In this document: one piece after another, positions 34,664 to 44,405 of the stretch
Numbering within the stretch: position 1 is the stretch's first letter
Layout: each line of letters starts with the position of its first letter
Source of the DNA: Lophium mytilinum
Taxonomy: Eukaryota
Direction: 5' to 3'
Length of the DNA: 64,000 bases
Assembly (NCBI GenBank): GCA_010093605.1
Contig: MU004181.1
Coordinates: 3,534,001 to 3,598,000 of the forward strand
Position numbers and translations under genes: made by a program
The notes under the pieces: model-generated
What the model saw: the letters and a program-made list of their open reading frames with translations, nothing else
The model's database searches: none
Told to the model about the DNA's origin: nothing

Positions 34664-34762
34664 GCCCGGTTAGCTCAATCGGTAGAGCGTGAGACTCTTA
34701 TCACGGCTCTGTTAGCAGCGGTTGCAATCTCAAGGTTGCGGGTTCGACCCCCGCATCGGGCT
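34664..34762 (+). tRNA. tRNA-Lys(CTT) with 26-nt intron (34701-34726)
   Basis: Acceptor stem GCCCGGT/ATCGGGC, D-arm AGCTCAATCGGTAGAGC, anticodon stem TGAGA/TCTCA with CTT at 34697-34699, T-loop GGTTCGA, and an oligo-T terminator near 34796. Confidence 0.96.
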
Positions 34763-37700
34763 CAATTCCCGGTGGTTTCAAATCATCCTAATTAATTTTT
34801 TTTCCTTAATTTTTGGTTGCTTGGTGGTGGGTGGGCATGATCACTTCGCTATAATGTTTTATGCCGCGAGTGTTTGATCAATTCTTTTTGCTAGGAAGAA
34901 GCTTTGGTGCATGAAGCGTGCACTTGCAAATCATGTTTCACAATATGGGGGAATCAAATATTAAGTGTGGGCAAATTTCGATTTTGCAATTCTGTTCGGT
35001 GGGTATAGAGGCTATTCGGAGTTGAGACATCCTTAGCGCATTCGCGAGCAACTTTCCAAAACCACGACCTTTGCGACCGAAGATCACAATCTGCTCGTGG
35101 ATTTTACGACATCAACTCGTTGCCAGATCCAGTCATCGGTCGTGACGAGGTTGCTTGATGTTCACCGTTCAGTTCTGTATTGCTTTTGGTTCTGCTATCT
35201 TAACATCTTAGAGTCATCCAGCCACCACAGCATGCGCCTGGGGAATAGATACCACCCGCTTCCATCCCGCTTCCTGCAGTCCTTCGCCGCTCCGACCAGG
35301 TGGTGTGTTGTTTTACGCTAAATTGCGAATATTCCTTTCTCACCACGCAGCCAGTCAGGCCACCGCATCGAACTGTCGCTCTCTGAAATTCGTAAATGCG
35401 TCTCCCGTAGCCTGCAACGCCGTCTCAGAATCAGCCTTACCCACCGACCGCGTTTGTCGTTGCTTTTCGACGTTGAAACGGCTTAAACGCGCGTGGGGGA
35501 GGCAGCCTATCCGCCAGATTTTTCCAGAAACGGAGGTTTTTTGGGGGTTCGAGTGGGATGATGACAAGCGCCACCCCATCCTACGTTCACCGATGGCGCC
35601 CATTGAGGGCTTGACTTCCCTTCCCTCCTTCCCATCGCGGATCCTCTGAAGCAGCGTCATGGCCTGTCACCTGCTATCATAGAACCACTGTATCACCTTC
35701 GCGGGCGCAGCTGAGATGAGAAGCTGCGTGTGCCGCCTGACGGGGCCTCTCCCCCAGGGCAGGGGTTGGCCTGGGAGCCTGGCTCAATGCAACTTTGTCA
35801 CCTGGAAGGATTCACATGGGTCTGCCGTTCGTCGTCGCCGGCAACGTCAGATTTAACGTTGCAGCAGCAAGCAAGTCCTAGCGGGCTGCAAGGAGCGTCG
35901 AAAAACGTTGTTCCTGCATGGCGTCTGCTGGTCTGCCCCTTGCGGATGCGGACCCGGGTTCGATAATTCCGTTGGGACTACTCACCCCACAATTGGCAGG
36001 CCTGCGTACCTAAATGGCGCATATTGGAGGCTTGATCCCTCCTCTGATCAACTGCCTCTCGGGTCAGGCCCAGGCAAGGTTACGCAGAGGATTGCATTAG
36101 CGGTGCGTTTGTCGGGTCCGCTGGTCTACTACCAGTAAGCAGTTCACAAGGTCATCGAGAACTCGGGTCTGCAAACCGACGGGTTGGCAATTTGCATGGG
36201 TTCGGGGACCGTTTACGTTGATGTCCGCAGCGAATCCATGTCCCGCTTCCATTCATCTTGGAACCGATGCTTGGACGGATGCAAGAATCCGCAGTGGACT
36301 CGATTTTTGAGATGACGCAGTCTGCCGACGGGTAGCGGTGCAAGGACGGATAGCAGGTCACAGCATGTCCCTCGCCGTGATGCTGGGAGGCGTTTGGGAT
36401 GTGAAGAGGACAGCCATAGGTGGTACAAGGAGCGAAGCCTGGTCCTCGGGCCGAGTGATACCGTAGAATATTTGGGCCTGTGGCTCCAAGATTTCGTAAA
36501 CATATAGGCTTGGCAAGTTGATCTAATGATAGGTAGTAAAATGAGTGATTCGGTGCAGTTCAGGGCCAGCCAAGCGAACAATGATGTAAAAGAAGCAGAG
36601 ACTGTGTCCCGATTCGCTATGTGGAGTTACAATTATCCCAGCACCCTGTTGATAGAGTGGAGCACCCGTGGAGGTTTCTCCCGGCTATTATATTTGACGT
36701 CGTTTGGTGACGGTGCTACATCAAGCAAGAGTCTGGAGGGTGATAATCTTGGCGATCCCATCCAAACCCGACATCCTCACACAACGGCGCCAAAACACAG
36801 ATGCAGATCGCCGAGGTCGGCAGAACCTGTCGGAGCTTGAAAAATGGCCTAGACGAGAGCCGTGGCGGCCGTGGAACGTTTTGACGATGCAGCTGGGCAA
36901 CCTCTTACGGCGCGTCTGGTCAGTCGAGTACTCGACGACAGCTGCAAACGGAACGGTCGAGAGGTCACAAAAGTTGTCGTACGCTGCTCACGGGACCGAT
37001 CAGGCAAGGCGTGGTCCAATTAGGCCGCGTGGAACACGGCTGGGGCTATTTCTGCGAGCCCACGTTACCCCGTCGTCCCGGCAAACCCCCTTTCTGCAGC
37101 CTGCAGGACGAGACTCCACTGCCATTTCTTCTCCACGTGTAAGCCCTGCCTCGCTTCCGCTCCAATGGGTTTCCTGCAGACGCCTGCTAAGGGCGCCATA
37201 CCGGTCTCCCCGCAGCCTTGATTGTGGAGATGGCCCATAGCACAGCCGTATAATAGCACAGCGACCTGGCTCCAGGTCGCACCGCGTGTGCAGAGTGCCA
37301 GCCCGGCCTGCGCTGCGATGTAGGGCCTGAATCGGTGCGGTGCCGAGCGCCCTTCCTCCGTTACCCTTGCTGCGACGCGGACACGGAGCCGGCTGGGGGA
37401 GGTGGCAGACACTGCCAGACGGCTGCGAAACGGCCATTATTGATATCGGTGTGCGGTTGCAACGCGGTATGGACATGGTGAGCAAAGGAGTCCCGTCGGC
37501 GCAGAGGACAGGTCTCACTCCCATTCTGTCCGGCCCCTGTCAGAAATCGCAGCTGAAAGGTGCGAGTCGATCGTGGCATGTCGAAAGGGCCTAAATTGGT
37601 GCCCGCTTTTAGTCGATGCTGCCGCTCTGTGAGAGTCAGCGAGGCTGCCGCACCCTCATCCCTTTTCTTTATGCTTTCACACTGGGCAGTCTGGCAACAA

Positions 37701-39799
37701 TGTGACACATCGCCGCGAAGCCTGGAGGCTGCGTGTCCGGCGTGCTTGACAACGCACCCATCTGCCATGTCATGATGGGATCCGAGCCCTGATTCAACGT
37801 CTCGGGCATGCGAGACTGAGAGTCATCCAAGGGCCTTGCCCGCCGCGAACGGGTAGAGAATCCGCCTCCTGCAGCCTGCTTAGATCTGCTGCTGGTAGCA
37901 CCGCGGAACGCCAGATGAACATCCCGGACCAGGGAATCGCTGGGACGGAAGCATCGCGAGCACTTCCGCCAGCTGTAGTGCAGCGCGGCGCGGAAGGCTT
38001 GCAGGGCCATGCTGATCAAGAGTCGGTTCCAAATGCGACATGTTTGAGGTGTAGCGAGAGACTGCTCAGTCAGGCTCTGGCGAGCGAGCAAAGCGGCATA
38101 TGTGACACGGGAACCCGCACAGCAGCTTCACCTCTCTTTATGACCGGCTGAATGCCACTTCTAGGCGTCAGCGAGACGGATATGGGCCGCATTCAGTCGC
38201 GCGTTTGCTCCTCCATGTTGCGTTAGGCGCACGCAGGGGGGCCGGGCGCGGATGCAGGTCCGCAGCAGCAGGGAGATCAAACGCGTTTCTAGACTCCTTC
38301 CAGAAGAAAGCAGCCAAGCGACGCCATTAAAGCGGCGCGGAGCGAGTAATTCATGGAATTGTGCCGCCGGTGCGAGGTGTGGCACAGGGCGCGCCGGTGA
38401 GCCTCCTGAGCGTCTGGAGGCCTGACAATAATGACGCCGTCCATCGCCCATCGCAACGGGGAATCGGTCTGCATCCGCCGCCTCAGGGTGCTGGAGAGCG
38501 CGTGCGGCGACGGAGGGCCCGCGATGCTATGGACGGGCAGAGAGTGCGGGTCGGCACAGCGGGATGCAGGCTAGAGTCGTGGGCAGTTGAGATATCCCAC
38601 GTGGATCAGACGGCGCCTATCACGAGCTGGGGGCGCGCACGCCGGGGGCGCTGTGGCAGAGACAAAAGAAACGGGGGCGTCGTTGAGATAGATCCGCCAA
38701 AAGCAAAAGCGACTGACTCCGTCCCTGAGGGTTGGGACGATGGAGCTTACCAGGCAGCTGGAGTGGGCCCGACGGGGAAGACATCCGCAGCCTGGAGGCG
38801 CTTCCACGGCCGTTCTGGCGAGTCAAACAGGGCAGATTGGGCGCAGGGGCAGAGGGAGGCAGCGGAGGGTCGCAGAGCAGCGGAGGAGCACAGGAGCAGC
38901 AGCGGCACAGCGGCGTCGTCGGCTGGCCACCGCATGTCAGTTGGGCCGCTCGCCATCAGATAGAGGCGGTCCGCAGGCGGTGGTGTGGGTGAGCACATGT
39001 GTGCATTGCAGCTCGGGAGACTGGCGGCGAGCGAACAGTGAAAGAGGCCGGCAACGTGGACGCTCGGCCGGGCTGGGCGGCCCATGGAACACGGATTCAG
39101 TGGTTCTAGCGCCAGCTGCAGGTACGGCCTTAGCGTGCAGCGCCGGCAGGGTGTGCAGGGCAACCCTTTCGTTTGGGACGGACGATCCGCGCATTTGCAG
39201 GGAGGCTGCAGGGAGGCTGCGAGAGTGAGTGTGAAACAGGCCGCCGTCGGTCCCGGCACGTCATGTAAAATGTTGCCTCTGAAAGCACACGGACACTGGC
39301 CAAATTTCACCTGTCTCGCCGCGCCGCTCACCCCTTAACGGCCCAGCTTCTTACATATATGCCTGGCTCGCACCCGGAGCTCTCACATTCCTCCTATCCA
39401 CATCCATCATCTCTACCGTTTCCCGCCTCCCTTCACTCACTCTAAACACACTCGCCAGAGGCTGCCCGGCTGTAGCACTCTGCTCTCGACCTCTCCATCT
39501 CTCGACACGTCTGCCACAGCTCCACTGCTCCACCAACACGAGACTCGTACCTCTTCCTCGGTCACCACCACCCCAGCTGTCCGCTTTCGACGCTGTCGCG
39601 CCTCGCACACCGTCGACCAGCTCTGCGCACTGCGTCTGTAGCCTGCCCTGTTGCAACACCAGCCGCCGCGCTGCAGTACCTCGTGAGTCACGTCGCCGCT
39701 GCATAAGCTGACCGCATCGCGAGCCCTCGACTGACTCCTATAAAGGACCTCACGCCCACGCTCTCCGCCATGATACTCCGGGAAACCGTCTCTCTCAAC

Positions 39800-39868
39800 A
39801 TGGGTCGCGGTGCTTACGATACCACGGGAACACCCAAGCCCCCACCGCCGCCGCCCAAGCGACGATAG
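39800..39868 (+). CDS. Putative 22-aa micropeptide / uORF MGRGAYDTTGTPKPPPPPPKRR (optional in-frame ATG at 39770 gives 32 aa)
   Basis: aacATGG context. First ORF after an ATG-free leader that contains an apparent intron 39683-39745. Confidence 0.5.
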   Translation: MGRGAYDTTGTPKPPPPPPKRR

Positions 39869-39905
39869 CGAATTATCCCATCATCGACAACCACCAGCGG
39901 TGGCC

Positions 39906-40109
39906 ATGGTTGCTTTTTCCCTTGACGACGCCCCTCGCCTCCAGCAGCCGACGCGCTCGCCATCGTCAGAGTTCCACGACTTTCGCTCGGTGTCTATCGA
40001 ACAGAGGGATGGCATGTCCTGCGATGTAAGTACAGTCCCAGCGGATCGGCACCGCACCTTGCATGCGTCAGCGCCCTGACTGATTACTCGGCAGCCCCCC
40101 TGCGCCTAG
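39906..40109 (+). CDS. Putative 44-aa spliced small protein MVAFSLDDAPRLQQPTRSPSSEFHDFRSVSIEQRDGMSCDPPCA
   Basis: gccATGG start; phase-0 intron 40026-40094 (GTAAGT...CTGAC...CAG); last exon CCC CCC TGC GCC TAG. Confidence 0.55.
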
Positions 40110-41103
40110 CTCTCTCACTACCACCTCAACCGTTCCCATCCTACGCGCCTTGCGCATTTCCCCCTCGGCTGTTCTCGCGATTACGCTTTTTAATATCGAG
40201 CGACTCTTTATCCATCCCGGCGCGCCTAATACCCGTCAGCGTTCACGAGCGACCATCTGCGACTTTTCCCTTGCACATCCCGGCCTGGCTTACGGTTCAA
40301 CATCTGGCATATCGACACCCCTGTATCACTAGTTTGCTCAGCGACGTTTCTCCTTGCTTTCATCAGCACCTTTAGCGACACATTTCCTTGCGGCTCAAAA
40401 AATTTCATTTCGGCGTTTTTAGACAGGACGGCTCAGGCACAAGGATACCAAAAAATCAGGTTGTTTCTTTTCATGGATTAGCATTGGGTAGAATTTCATC
40501 GCCTGCGGCTCGCGCTGCAATCTGGCATGGATTTTTTGTACTATATAGCTCGGCAGCCGTCGGCGAGGTTTGTGGGTGCCACTGCACCCCGATATCACTC
40601 TCGCCGGGCGGCCTTTCGTCTGAGCGGTGACGAGATTGATGCTCAGTGACGTTTCGGAGCTGGAGGTGCCTGGTCGGGCCTGTGTATCGTTAGACATTGC
40701 TGGGGCTGCAAAATAGACTTGTAATCATCACAATCAGATTTCACATTCTCCAAACACTCTACTGGCCCATACCGGGGAATGCTCTCCCGCCGTGATGGAT
40801 TGTGGTACACGGCGTTGCGGACCAGCGCCGTTTGGCGTAGCGATAGGCTGCACTATGCAGCCGCTCCCCATTCTAATTCCACTGAAGGGAGTAGTGTCCC
40901 TTGCGTGCGCCACCAAAGGCATCCTCATTCTCCTGTCGGAGCCTTGGCGTGGAGGCCACAAACCCCCACCTGCAAGTCGTCACGCCGCTGGACCTCACCT
41001 CCACCATCACCAAACGCCCGCAACCAGCCACCCAGTCGCTCCCTGCCGCCCGCTTCGAAATTCTCCTTCCTTGCCTCGCACCAATATAGTGGACGCCGCC
41101 ACC

Positions 41104-42279
41104 ATGGCTGCTGTCAACTGGCGCACTATCAATATCGACGCCCTCGACCCCGACTCCCCCGCCAACTTCGATCTCACCTCGCTCGCGCCCGCGGTTGCGC
41201 CCGTCTCGACGGCTGATGTGCAGAGTCTCGCGGGGCAGATCCGGCAGCTGCTGCGAGGCGGCGACAGTGAGGGTGCGCTGAGGGGCGCGCTGGAGAACCC
41301 GCCGTACGGTGCTGATGAGAGGGGCAAGGTGTGTACTCCGTCGCCATTCCACCCCAGGCCATAGCAGCGGGCGGACTATTGGATGTCTCTGGGACCTGGG
41401 CCTCGTGAATACGGCCGCCACTGGGCCTCTGTGAGCAGAATGGGGGCGCCAGCAGCGTGGAAATGCGCAAACACCGAAACACACGCACACAGAGTACAGG
41501 GCTGACTGACGGTTTCACCGGATCAATAGGACGTCCACCTAGCCACCGTCATCGAGATCCTCCAGTCCATCAGGCAGTCGGACATGTCCCCGATCCTTAG
41601 TCGGATATACGAGTCGGATGGTGGGACCGAGGCGCTGGATGTCCTGATGAAATATGTGTACGCGCTCCCCATACTGCACACATGAATAGATCTCTCGTCA
41701 GCATGCTCTCCATACCGCTATCTGGGCTCAAGGAGCTGTCCATGGTGTTCCGTATCCCGCGTTGGACAACTCGCTTGATATCGCTCGACTTGGTAGAGCT
41801 TACAGCTGACGCTTGGTTGCTCTCACAGGTACAAAGGCATGGGACACTCGAGCTCGGCAACAGCAACGAAGCAAATCACACCTCAAGCGACCGGCTTTTC
41901 ACAAGTCCACGGGCGCGGCGGCGGCGAGGGAGGTGGGCAGGCCATGAGCGTGCTGCTAAGCTGGCACGAGAAGGTATGCACCGCTCTACGTTACTCTGTT
42001 CGCCCGTCTCTCAGCTTTCGACTCACGAGCAGCCTGCGCATCTATTGCTGGCGTCATTCATGAGATCATTCGCGAGATGTTTCGCGAGTATCTTCGTCTT
42101 GATTTTCTTTTTTGTCGTCATTCGCTGCCCCTAACATGTCTTTCTCCCAATCACGCCGCGAAGTCTCCACCCGCTTCACACATTGGTCCGAGCTAACACA
42201 TCACCTGCCACCCCAGCTCGTGGAAATCGCAGGCCCAGGCTGCATCGTAAGGACAATGTCAGACAGACGGGTGGTTTGA
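41104..42279 (+). CDS. ARC15: Arp2/3 complex subunit 5 (p16-Arc)
   Basis: Exons 41104-41328, 41530-41657, 41829-41973, 42217-42279 give MAAVNWRTINIDALDP...ALENPPYG...DVLMKYVYKGM...[29 protein letters not shown]. Confidence 0.95.
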
Positions 42280-44405
42280 ACACGCGCCAGCACAGCTCAA
42301 CAAGCATGACTCACGATCAGAAAGCGTCATTGGGGTGGGTTATTTTGGACACTCAGCAGAAGAAGCGGTTTCACGTACCCGCTAGCCCGGCCTGCCGGCG
42401 ACAGGCAGCAAAATCAAAAAGAGCAGAGAAGAGAAACGGAGCTCAGGAAGCCGTCTAGGCCGTACGTAGGCAAATGCACATGCTAGCCATTACCACTTCC
42501 TCCCGTCGGTACTCAAGAAAGATCTCGGCGACTCCCCCGGTCGTCTGTCGAGGAATTCACGTGTCGAGCCATGCATGCACACAATACGTCTTTGCTCACA
42601 CGCCCCCTGCTCGCTTTTTCAGCCTCAAACCCGCACGCCCTAACAGGGCCAAAACGCGCGTAGGTGCATACATGCTTCGGAGGTGCTTCCATGCGCAAAA
42701 GACGGGTCAATAGAAAATGTCCTTCTAAAGGCGGAGCCCTCCCCGATCCCCTAGCAAACTCAAAATATCCCCCATCGCATCGCCTCGACAACGTTAACCC
42801 GGGAAAAAAATGTACTCGCCTGGCCAGCAAGCGTTTTCTAGAACAACAGGCATCGGAACAACAGCCGCGCTCCCCCAGACCAGTAACGAGTAACCTGTCC
42901 GCCAACCAGCTTTTTCCATCAGCTCACCCTCGTCAGCCTTAATAGCAGTGCGTCGCGAGCCCACACGGCAGAACGTGACACCCGCGCCCCCCTTTCTCTA
43001 CTCGATGATGCAGTGCCTCGGATCTCGTTGTGAAACTGGTGCGGAATACTGTGATTTTGCGCAGTCACCTAATTTTGACTTTTTGTGCTTTGCGCGTAAA
43101 AAGCTCTTTGTGGTCTGCGAATAGAAAATTGCCATTTTTACCCCGAAATGGCCGATTCGTGGAGTGACTTGCTTTGCGCAATTGATGCCGAGGGCGGATT
43201 GGTTTGGAGGTGCAGGGATGGATGGGGGTAAAAGCAGCGTTGAAAACCAGCCTGCCAGCCAGGTTTTAGAAAGCCGTTCCCTGTAGACTCAAAACCTACA
43301 AGGCTGGCAGCGACAAACTCTCTCGTCCACTTTGCTCGTGTTGGCATTGTGTGTAACAGGCATCGCCCTGCGTGTGGATTCTGCACTCACGTGAAATCGC
43401 AGCGAGTTGAGTCAAGAAGCCGTGAAAGATTATGTAAATGTTCGATTTGAATCTTCCGCGCACGCGCGCCTGCGGCTATGAGACCCTTTTTTTTCTTTTC
43501 CCGCGACCGACGTTGTGCGTGTCAGCATGCATGCTTGTTCTGCTTGCTCCACTGTAATTCCTGCCATGCCCTGCCCTGAACCTGCCCTGCACATCCCAGC
43601 AATCCCAATGCTCCGTCTCTCTCTCTCTACTTTGGCGCGCTCGGCCATGCGCATCCGGAGCTGTTCGTCGAACAAGGAAGAAGGAAATCTTGGCGTAAGA
43701 TGGATTAATGAGGCTGCGTCGATCTCGGGGCCCTGTTGGATCGCGAGACCAGGCGGTTTTGGGGTATGGGATCCGATTTGACTGGGGGAGGGGTGGACGT
43801 GCGGGTTGTGCGTTCGAGAGGGTGGAATTGGACCGGGTAGGTTTGAGGGTGCTGGAGGATGATCGCACGGCGGTGAGGGAACAAGAGGTGGATGTTGGGG
43901 AGGGCGGGCACAACCGACGGGCTTGAAAAATTGATATGGAATCGGAATTTCTCAGAAGGACTTCTAACGCCGGCGAGAGAATGTTAAGAGCTGGTCGAGA
44001 AGGATAATGCAAGTTGCGGGCTAAAAAAATTGGTAGCATCCTCAACGATTTGACGTCGGGAGGCAGTTCTTTTCCATGTGCTGAAGGGTATCGGACGACG
44101 GTGAACGAATCTATCAAAAGCCGTAAATGTTGGTAGGGTTGGTGGATTCCGACCTTTGCAGATGTGCGCAGTGGTTCATGGTTCCAGATGGGGCTATGCC
44201 CACTCGTCCACTCGTCCACATACCAGCTTGTAGGCTGTTCACACATATTCGTCCAGATCATTCATACCGCATCGAGAATTTCAGAAAGCGGCAGGCAAGT
44301 GTAGAAAGTCTTTCATTTCCCATTACTGCATGGTTTTACCACAGGGTCCTTGGAAAGTCCTTTCTTTGCCATTACTGCATAATCCACCAGAAGGATTATC
44401 TTCAA

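Follow-up and report, generated by a model that had tools for sequence, protein, structure and literature searches.

A small gene on contig MU004181.1 of Lophium mytilinum encodes a 32-residue peptide that belongs to an undescribed, conserved fungal family. It extends from about position 39362 to about 40740 of the stretch analysed here (64,000 nucleotides, positions 3,534,001 to 3,598,000 of the contig; hereafter the window) and is transcribed into one spliced mRNA, composed of a 5' untranslated region (UTR) with an intron, a 32-codon open reading frame (ORF), an intron in the 3'UTR and a tail of about 0.8 kb. We are nearly certain that the locus is a real gene, and with a spliced transcript and purifying selection on its ORF it is a conserved microprotein gene, a general kind that is already known. 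A sequence-only reading of the window had proposed a spliced RNA polymerase II locus missed by gene finders, carrying two micropeptide frames, ORF1 (22 aa) and ORF2 (44 aa). The spliced locus is real, and so is a micropeptide: ORF1 is conserved and under selection at the amino acid level. It is the single conserved ORF of the locus, which speaks against a dicistronic pair.

Transcription and splicing

Transcript-type data were provided by four of seven public runs aligned to window positions 38500 to 42600 (X1, X2, X3 and X5). X1 is 99+% identical to the window, X5 represents a relative and X2 a more distant relative; X1 and X2 are labelled as RNA by guess only, and X5 carries no recorded type. 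Since the three introns of the downstream gene ARC15 are also spliced out in X1 and X5, we consider these runs to be transcript-derived. Both introns predicted from the letters alone (39683 to 39745 and 40026 to 40094) are removed in X1 and X5 exactly as predicted, with joints 39682>39746 and 40025>40095 and GT..AG ends, and X2 also jumps both introns, its letters around the joints having diverged; X3 covers neither joint nor ORF1 and is uninformative. The other landmarks of the earlier reading are likewise present, namely intron lengths of 63 and 69 nucleotides (nt), a frame at 39800 to 39868, a 37-nt gap, an ATG at 39906 within GCCATGG and a leader (39362 to 39682) free of ATG. What it had missed is an in-frame ATG at 39770 (TCCGCCATGA), between the first intron and the 22-codon frame, so that its reading frame for ORF1 was right and its start and length were not. 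The features of the gene are as follows.

39352 to 39360, plus strand: TATA-like element, seen in sequence and by eye at a similar position in orthologs; transcript contigs start downstream of it
39362 to 39682, plus strand: exon 1, a non-coding 5' leader of approximate start, covered by contigs from 39445 (X2) and 39510 (X1)
39683 to 39745, plus strand: 5'UTR intron, GTGAGT..CTGAC..AAG
39770 to 39868, plus strand: gene, 32-aa ORF (MILRETVSLNMGRGAYDTTGTPKPPPPPPKRR) and stop, from sequence, upstream-ATG counts, selection and profile searches
39770 to 39799, plus strand: ten-codon leader, M-I-x-R-E/D-x4-N, from residue counts and selection
39800 to 39829, plus strand: core X-GRGAYDTTG, with X = Met here and the inner ATG in an AACATGG context
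39830 to 39865, plus strand: Pro/Lys tail with a basic end
39906 to 40109, plus strand: ORF2, read here as an unconserved 3'UTR frame and not a gene
39988 to 40025, plus strand: conserved non-coding block before the intron donor, from a 13-sequence alignment with frame-breaking deletions
40026 to 40094, plus strand: 3'UTR intron, GTAAGT..CTGAC..CAG, 157 nt past the stop
40095 to 40740 (end approximate), plus strand: 3'UTR with conserved short motifs; the X2 contig ends at 40706 and the X5 contig at 40584

Start codon and selection

A metagenome scan for the ORF1 core, made with a degenerate pattern of 29 bases, returned at least 113 stretches, and the locus counts below refer to the matches listed. 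A stop codon is visible in 85 distinct loci, of which 78 carry an ATG in frame 9 to 14 codons upstream; of the other seven, one is cut off where its contig ends and six no longer possess the short proline tail. As a frame control, an upstream ATG was found in 76 of 82 loci in frame versus 2 of 82 in each of the other two frames, and in 9 of 82 at a control distance of 15 to 20 codons. Ten-codon leaders (n = 55) keep Ile in 50, Arg in 51 (with four codons used), Glu or Asp in 49 and Asn in 53. Measured against 54 loci, and leaving out the ten searched core codons, which are conserved by construction, the ratio of nonsynonymous to synonymous change (pN/pS) was 0.46 in the leader and 0.26 in the four codons after the searched core, compared with 1.04 in both flanks and with 0.91 and 1.17 in the leader's other frames. 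Residues left unspecified by the pattern are conserved too (K13 in 76 and P14 in 77 of 78 loci), so the match set exceeds chance, and core plus tail amount to 19 to 24 residues in all 78 loci with a leader and a short frame.

The main start is very probably ATG 39770. A purine stands at -3 of the inner ATG in 78 of the 78 loci having that ATG, and of the first ATG in 51 of 78, and leaky scanning may therefore also give the 22-residue form; that form is at most a processed or leaky-scanning product. In 50 of 72 loci an intron-like sequence is present in the 250 nt that precede the start, a raw count without control.

A second core copy (C12:802865-802916, minus strand) has no in-frame start codon and a tail that runs on without an early stop, and is probably a pseudogene; in X2 it is matched by a contig of its own, and the protein P0172 shows the same run-on tail. 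Two further loci (L038 and L055) each hold two inverted core copies on opposite strands, without leader or normal tail.

Range of the family and tandem forms

A profile search returned 238 clusters at E ≤ 0.001 (150 listed) and a second protein search 242 proteins at E ≤ 1 (120 listed). Members among the matches listed come from Alternaria, Venturia, Zymoseptoria, Neurospora (NCU03451), Sordaria (SMACR_12796, 33 aa), Pyricularia (32 aa), Fusarium (31 aa), Trichoderma, Colletotrichum, Sclerotinia, Penicillium and Trichophyton, which we take to represent four classes, the Dothideomycetes, Sordariomycetes, Leotiomycetes and Eurotiomycetes. No yeast or basidiomycete name appears among the matches listed, the genomes of those groups having been outside the search. 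In databases the family is present solely as hypothetical or uncharacterised protein, the exceptions being an extended model labelled 'secreted protein' and a single stray JGI label. The longer entries mostly end in the family peptide and begin with N-terminal extensions that are unrelated, and we read these entries as wrong gene models. The model of NCU03451 has 84 aa; judged by Sordaria and two other records rather than by Neurospora DNA, we infer a true frame of about 34 aa.

Two to three cores per protein occur in 12 of the 150 relatives listed, with acidic spacers in 5 of the 12, KR or RR in 1 of 14 spacers and inner copies mostly preceded by N or D plus one residue. Seven of these tandem forms were looked up, and the four that are named all belong to the Xylariales (Xylaria, Annulohypoxylon and, twice, Anthostomella). 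Three proteins (P0044, P0073 and P0117) have two to three cores without a proline tail between them, which suggests that the head may occur alone.

Pfam held no family for the window peptide or 10 relatives, the ESM Atlas gave no usable match for the window peptide or one tandem form (from which neither novelty nor absence follows), and PDB sequences gave two chance-level matches only (E 1.5 and 4.3). A small nucleolar RNA host reading was rejected, as Rfam over 38500 to 41200 gave one match far below threshold. The peptide strings, NCU03451 and SMAC 12796 went unmentioned in the literature searched, which mostly excluded subscription papers, other accessions of the family gave unrelated number matches only among the papers listed, and the family was absent from the general microprotein literature searched and from the available part of the review PMC11413187.

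Leader, core and the Asn-X pattern

The reading that we tentatively favour, while granting it somewhat less than even weight, is that of a leader/core precursor processed to a ligand acting in trans. It draws on the upstream-ATG bias and the selection on the leader described above, and in addition on the replaceable inner Met, the Asn-X pattern, the tandem cores and a second gene that encodes the bare head. The inner Met is missing in 32 of 128 distinct single-copy units of the profile-search set, and 29 of these 32 keep the upstream Met. Across all 212 proteins, position X is other than Met in 34 of 148 single-copy units (Phe 24, Gln 4, Glu 3, others 3). Asn precedes X in 128 of the 148, a sequence pattern that matches the Asn-X site of a-factor, and does so in 33 of 34 non-Met units versus 95 of 114 Met units (p = 0.045, kinship ignored). 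Because the Asn is kept in non-Met units, it is not merely the AAC of a start context, and its bias toward those units is what would be expected if Asn matters most where there is no inner start. The a-factor cleavage site has been described as 'N-X with X aromatic or uncharged' (bioRxiv 10.1101/2021.09.28.462209, partial text). The window peptide itself has no hydrophobic stretch (best 7-residue hydropathy mean 0.81) and no Cys, ends KRR and is probably disordered.

The pattern M-G-R-[GDE]-[AG]-Y-[DN] has three matches in this genome, the present locus and two 7-codon frames on C15, while the reversed pattern, as a control, has none. The C15 locus (1491056-1491216) holds two separate ATG-GRGGYN-TAG frames 137 nt apart (1491056 and 1491193), whose product MGRGGYN corresponds to the head that cleavage after Asn would expose at the present locus. 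Being encoded without leader or tail, it indicates that the same head occurs at a free N-terminus. The two genes are alike in the head M-G-R-G-[AG]-Y-[DN] and in multi-copy use, and differ in that the C15 frames are separate 7-codon ORFs at another locus without leader or proline tail, the likeness being one of head motif only. No fungal paper on GRGGYN was among the literature matches listed. The region upstream on C15 holds TGCAGGT, AAAGCAC and TGTCTCG, words conserved upstream of ORF1 orthologs, as raw matches with chance unweighed.

Under the favoured reading, the mRNA would be translated into a cytosolic precursor with a leader of about 10 residues ending in Asn, the core X-GRGAYDTTG and the Pro/Lys tail, and the working molecule would be a C-terminal peptide of 20 to 23 residues with its free N-terminus at X. 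Cleavage would occur after Asn, probably by an M16 protease of the Axl1/Ste23 type; where X is Met, as here, release could also take place by leaky scanning to the inner ATG. The ligand would then act in trans, its GRGxY(D/N) head binding a conserved partner and its tail serving as a spacer or second docking site. Transcription, splicing, the one ORF with its upstream start, selection on amino acids and the range of the family are established, and what we infer is translation, cleavage, protease, partner and the place of action, inside or outside the cell. This genome does encode an M16 peptidase of the Axl1/Ste23 domain type.

Several points weigh against this reading: (i) M16 peptidases are general enzymes, and their presence says little; (ii) a typical protease site varies less than this leader does, and Asn is missing in 19 of 114 Met-type units; (iii) the counts are not independent of kinship; (iv) the tandem forms are known as predicted proteins only, and 7 of the 12 have no acidic spacer; (v) the peptide string and the gene name were absent from the Sordaria proteogenomics supplement files searched and from a Neurospora phosphoproteomics supplement; and (vi) we know of no export route for a peptide with neither a CAAX motif nor a signal peptide.

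A wider proposal, which we regard as unlikely, is an undescribed system of peptide signals in filamentous ascomycetes, to which this gene and the MGRGGYN gene would each contribute one branch; it would have non-lipidated, signal-less X-G-R-G-x-Y-(D/N) heads, Asn-directed cleavage or direct initiation, unconventional export, a conserved receptor and control by mitogen-activated protein kinase and Ste12. The narrower claim, that the peptide is the self-signal of hyphal communication, called still undescribed in a 2019 review (PMC6455062, partial text), has a very slight chance of being true; we rate it low because NCU03451 is independent of the regulator ADV-1.

The ARC15 neighbour

The peptide could instead be an unprocessed, disordered cytosolic microprotein, its RGAYDTTG and its PxxP/PxxxPR-like tail bridging a pair of proteins (SH3 proteins of actin patches, for instance), with tandem forms providing avidity. 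We presume that the Pro/Lys tail fits SH3-ligand patterns, as a candidate only. The neighbourhood also suits such an adaptor, since the next gene encodes an Arp2/3 subunit.

41104 to 41325, plus strand: ARC15 (Arp2/3 p16) coding exon 1, a separate syntenic gene (PF04699, E 4e-15)

The synteny with ARC15 suggested earlier is real: ARC15 lies downstream in 17 of the 113 loci listed, at 1.18 to 2.38 kb, or in 14 of the 45 with at least 2.4 kb of downstream sequence, and Neurospora Arc15 (NCU03438) is 13 tags away from NCU03451 (PMC6455062, partial text). In addition, GRG-starting repeats function unprocessed in Amu1/Par32 (PMC4501750, partial text). Neighbourhood is not function, however, and in 31 of the 45 long-enough loci ARC15 is not seen within 2.5 kb; the length and order of the tail vary, and PQPQ endings occur; and an adaptor leaves both the Asn-X rule and the leaderless heptapeptide gene unexplained. 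We consider this reading on the unlikely side, yet the most serious of the alternatives.

The 3' region

An intron-like sequence within 280 nt after the stop is found in 33 of 51 loci versus 3.3 expected from shuffles; in the block that follows, the count was 0 of 46. Among the 18 loci lacking a match, the pattern overlooked a donor in a few, and in others no donor could be seen, so the intron is not universal. Within intron 2 (region 40082-40090), the word CCTTGCATG at 40057-40065, upstream of the branch site, is conserved in most of 13 aligned introns. Further down, motifs of the 3'UTR exceed dinucleotide shuffles in 46 loci (GGCGTT 53 vs 9, ATAGAY 61 vs 10, TGTAYA 40 vs 9). The 3' end of the gene (window 40607-40762) has a second copy of 158 nt, 84% identical, on the same contig at C1:444837-444994. 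Two further candidates were rejected: an RNA structure around the 3'UTR intron (-0.33 kcal/mol, with no compensatory change in its 4 pairs) and stop read-through or an 84-codon frame from ATG 40009, whose homologous ATG opens unrelated frames of 31 to 141 codons and has disappeared from 3 of 12 relatives.

Another alternative is a nascent peptide acting in cis, in which the polyproline and basic end slow elongation or termination in an eIF5A-dependent manner and, with the 3'UTR intron, set RNA decay or read-through translation of ARC15. Prolines stand beside the stop in nearly all members, the intron is frequent, and 3'UTR introns can trigger nonsense-mediated decay in Neurospora (PMC7746235, partial text). 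The X1 contig also continues unbroken into ARC15, although a joined contig does not establish a single transcript, and X2 and X5 have separate contigs for the two genes. Against it, no conserved downstream ORF is available to be regulated, the ARC15 distance varies, several loci show no 3'UTR intron on inspection, the strongest conservation lies at the head and not at the stop, and action in cis would leave the tandem copies and the tail-less sister peptide without any sense. We see a slim chance for this reading.

The same region bears on the original proposal of a dicistronic pair, or of ORF1 as an upstream ORF (uORF) controlling a Cys-containing peptide of 44 aa. ORF2 does have a good start context and a 44-codon spliced frame across a real intron, and X2, in which 80 exon letters are swapped for 77, keeps the frame. 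As a conserved gene it fails, since a tblastn search of ORF2 against the 113 loci listed found nothing better than E 1.2, and it beats shuffles in only 1 of 16 orthologous spliced regions. Its region suffers 1-base deletions (in 2 of 12 relatives in the block before the donor), the sole shared ATG is missing in 3 of 12 relatives, and frames across the 3' junction in related loci are unrelated in length and sequence. ORF2 thus reads as an untranslated tail crossing an intron of conserved position. No second same-strand core, as in a polycistronic small ORF gene of the tarsal-less type, occurs in the 113 loci listed, and no conserved main ORF, as a conserved-peptide uORF would need, follows on the same mRNA. 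The two-peptide proposal is accordingly very improbable.

Upstream elements and expression

Upstream motifs were counted in 38 regions (one locus per distinct peptide) against 28 background regions.

39117 to 39123, plus strand: TGCAGGT, conserved upstream motif (15/38 vs 3/28)
39232 to 39238, plus strand: TGAAACA, Ste12-type site, 538 nt before the start codon (15/38 vs 4/28; p = 0.03, kinship ignored)
39257 to 39265, plus strand: CACGTCATG, presumably a CRE/ATF-like site, at the same position in several close orthologs (14/38 vs 6/28, not significant)

Of the 15 loci having TGAAACA, 9 place it between -511 and -599, with variable flanks; it stands at the same place in close orthologs and is missing from many loci. 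An Ssd1-type motif, CNYTCNYT (window 39430-39441), occurs 135 times in 52 upstream regions versus 67 in dinucleotide shuffles. About 4.5 kb upstream of the gene (window 34800-39350) contain no recognisable gene, with blocks at 38268-38324 and 38762-38808 matching related loci, and what by eye resembles an intron-containing tRNA gene lies at 34664-34765, where ARAGORN in bacterial mode found none.

All expression values for NCU03451 were counted on the wrong gene model. In the wild type it reached 27 to 55 reads per kilobase per million, and it was rejected as an ADV-1 target, being ADV-1-independent (q ≥ 0.75; PMC5217103 supplement). It was up in light (log2 2.26) and down without VE-1 (log2 -1.42, one of 827 genes), and in light fell 4- to 10-fold from 43-54 before fertilisation to 5-13 after (PMC11481897, partial text). 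A label as GUL-1/Ssd1-enriched, among up to 2,628 RNAs and with low counts, is weak (PMC10512220, partial text).

A mating pheromone of a new type is hardly credible. Mating pheromones diverge, and the core of this family is nearly invariant across classes. The likeness to a-factor precursors (Saccharomyces cerevisiae Mfa1, processed by Axl1/Ste23) lies in a tiny product (32 aa, well below 100 residues) without a signal peptide, as judged by hydropathy only, in the Asn and aromatic or uncharged residue before the conserved part and in TGAAACA, the Ste12 motif, upstream (bioRxiv 10.1101/2021.09.28.462209, partial text). Unlike a-factor, the ORF1 peptide lacks CAAX and Cys and so cannot be farnesylated; CAAX was absent from the window peptide and the 8 relatives checked, and the endings of 78 loci were inspected. 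Expression runs opposite to that of the mating pheromone genes as well, NCU03451 falling after fertilisation while ccg-4 rises from 1568 to 62117 in light and mfa-1 from 27 to 1100 in the dark (PMC11481897, partial text).

Comparison with other precursors

MSDIN precursors also consist of a short leader and a core, with a variable core and fixed flanks; in the ORF1 family, the reverse, the core is fixed. Apidaecin-type precursors have tandem cores, acidic spacers and a product rich in Pro, Lys and Arg, all of which recur in the ORF1 family, and carry a signal peptide and dibasic sites. Kex2-processed repeat proteins likewise have a signal peptide and dibasic sites, and neither these nor the dikaritins, which are ribosomally synthesized and post-translationally modified peptides (RiPPs), fit a window peptide devoid of hydrophobic stretches and a family with one dibasic spacer in 14; no RiPP tailoring genes were seen beside the locus. 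The Qsp1 precursor of Cryptococcus is secreted and has a signal peptide. Its mature peptide starts NFG and contains GAY, comparable to the NF-GRGAY variants of the ORF1 family (PMC5959073, partial text), but spacing and end differ, Cryptococcus is a basidiomycete, and the likeness is one of letters, with no homology test passed. Amu1/Par32 with its GRGGAGN repeats is a fungal, disordered protein with a repeated motif that starts GRG and a required Arg; it differs in having about 294 residues and 3 to 6 repeats, in sharing only GRG[GA] without Y-D-T-T-G, and in not being processed, as far as has been described (PMC4501750, partial text). Column counts of 154 units of the ORF1 family did not agree with 3 to 6 repeats of G-R-G-G-X-[AG]-N in a long disordered protein.

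Significance

The nine-residue core is near-invariant across the four classes and must therefore bind an equally conserved partner. Its bearers have been recorded as 'hypothetical protein', usually with a wrong and much longer gene model, and the corrected model makes a one-gene test possible in Neurospora (NCU03451) and Sordaria (SMACR_12796). If the peptide is a processed ligand, it would represent a fungal peptide class that lacks both a signal peptide and a lipid anchor; as an adaptor, it would rank among the smallest conserved fungal proteins.

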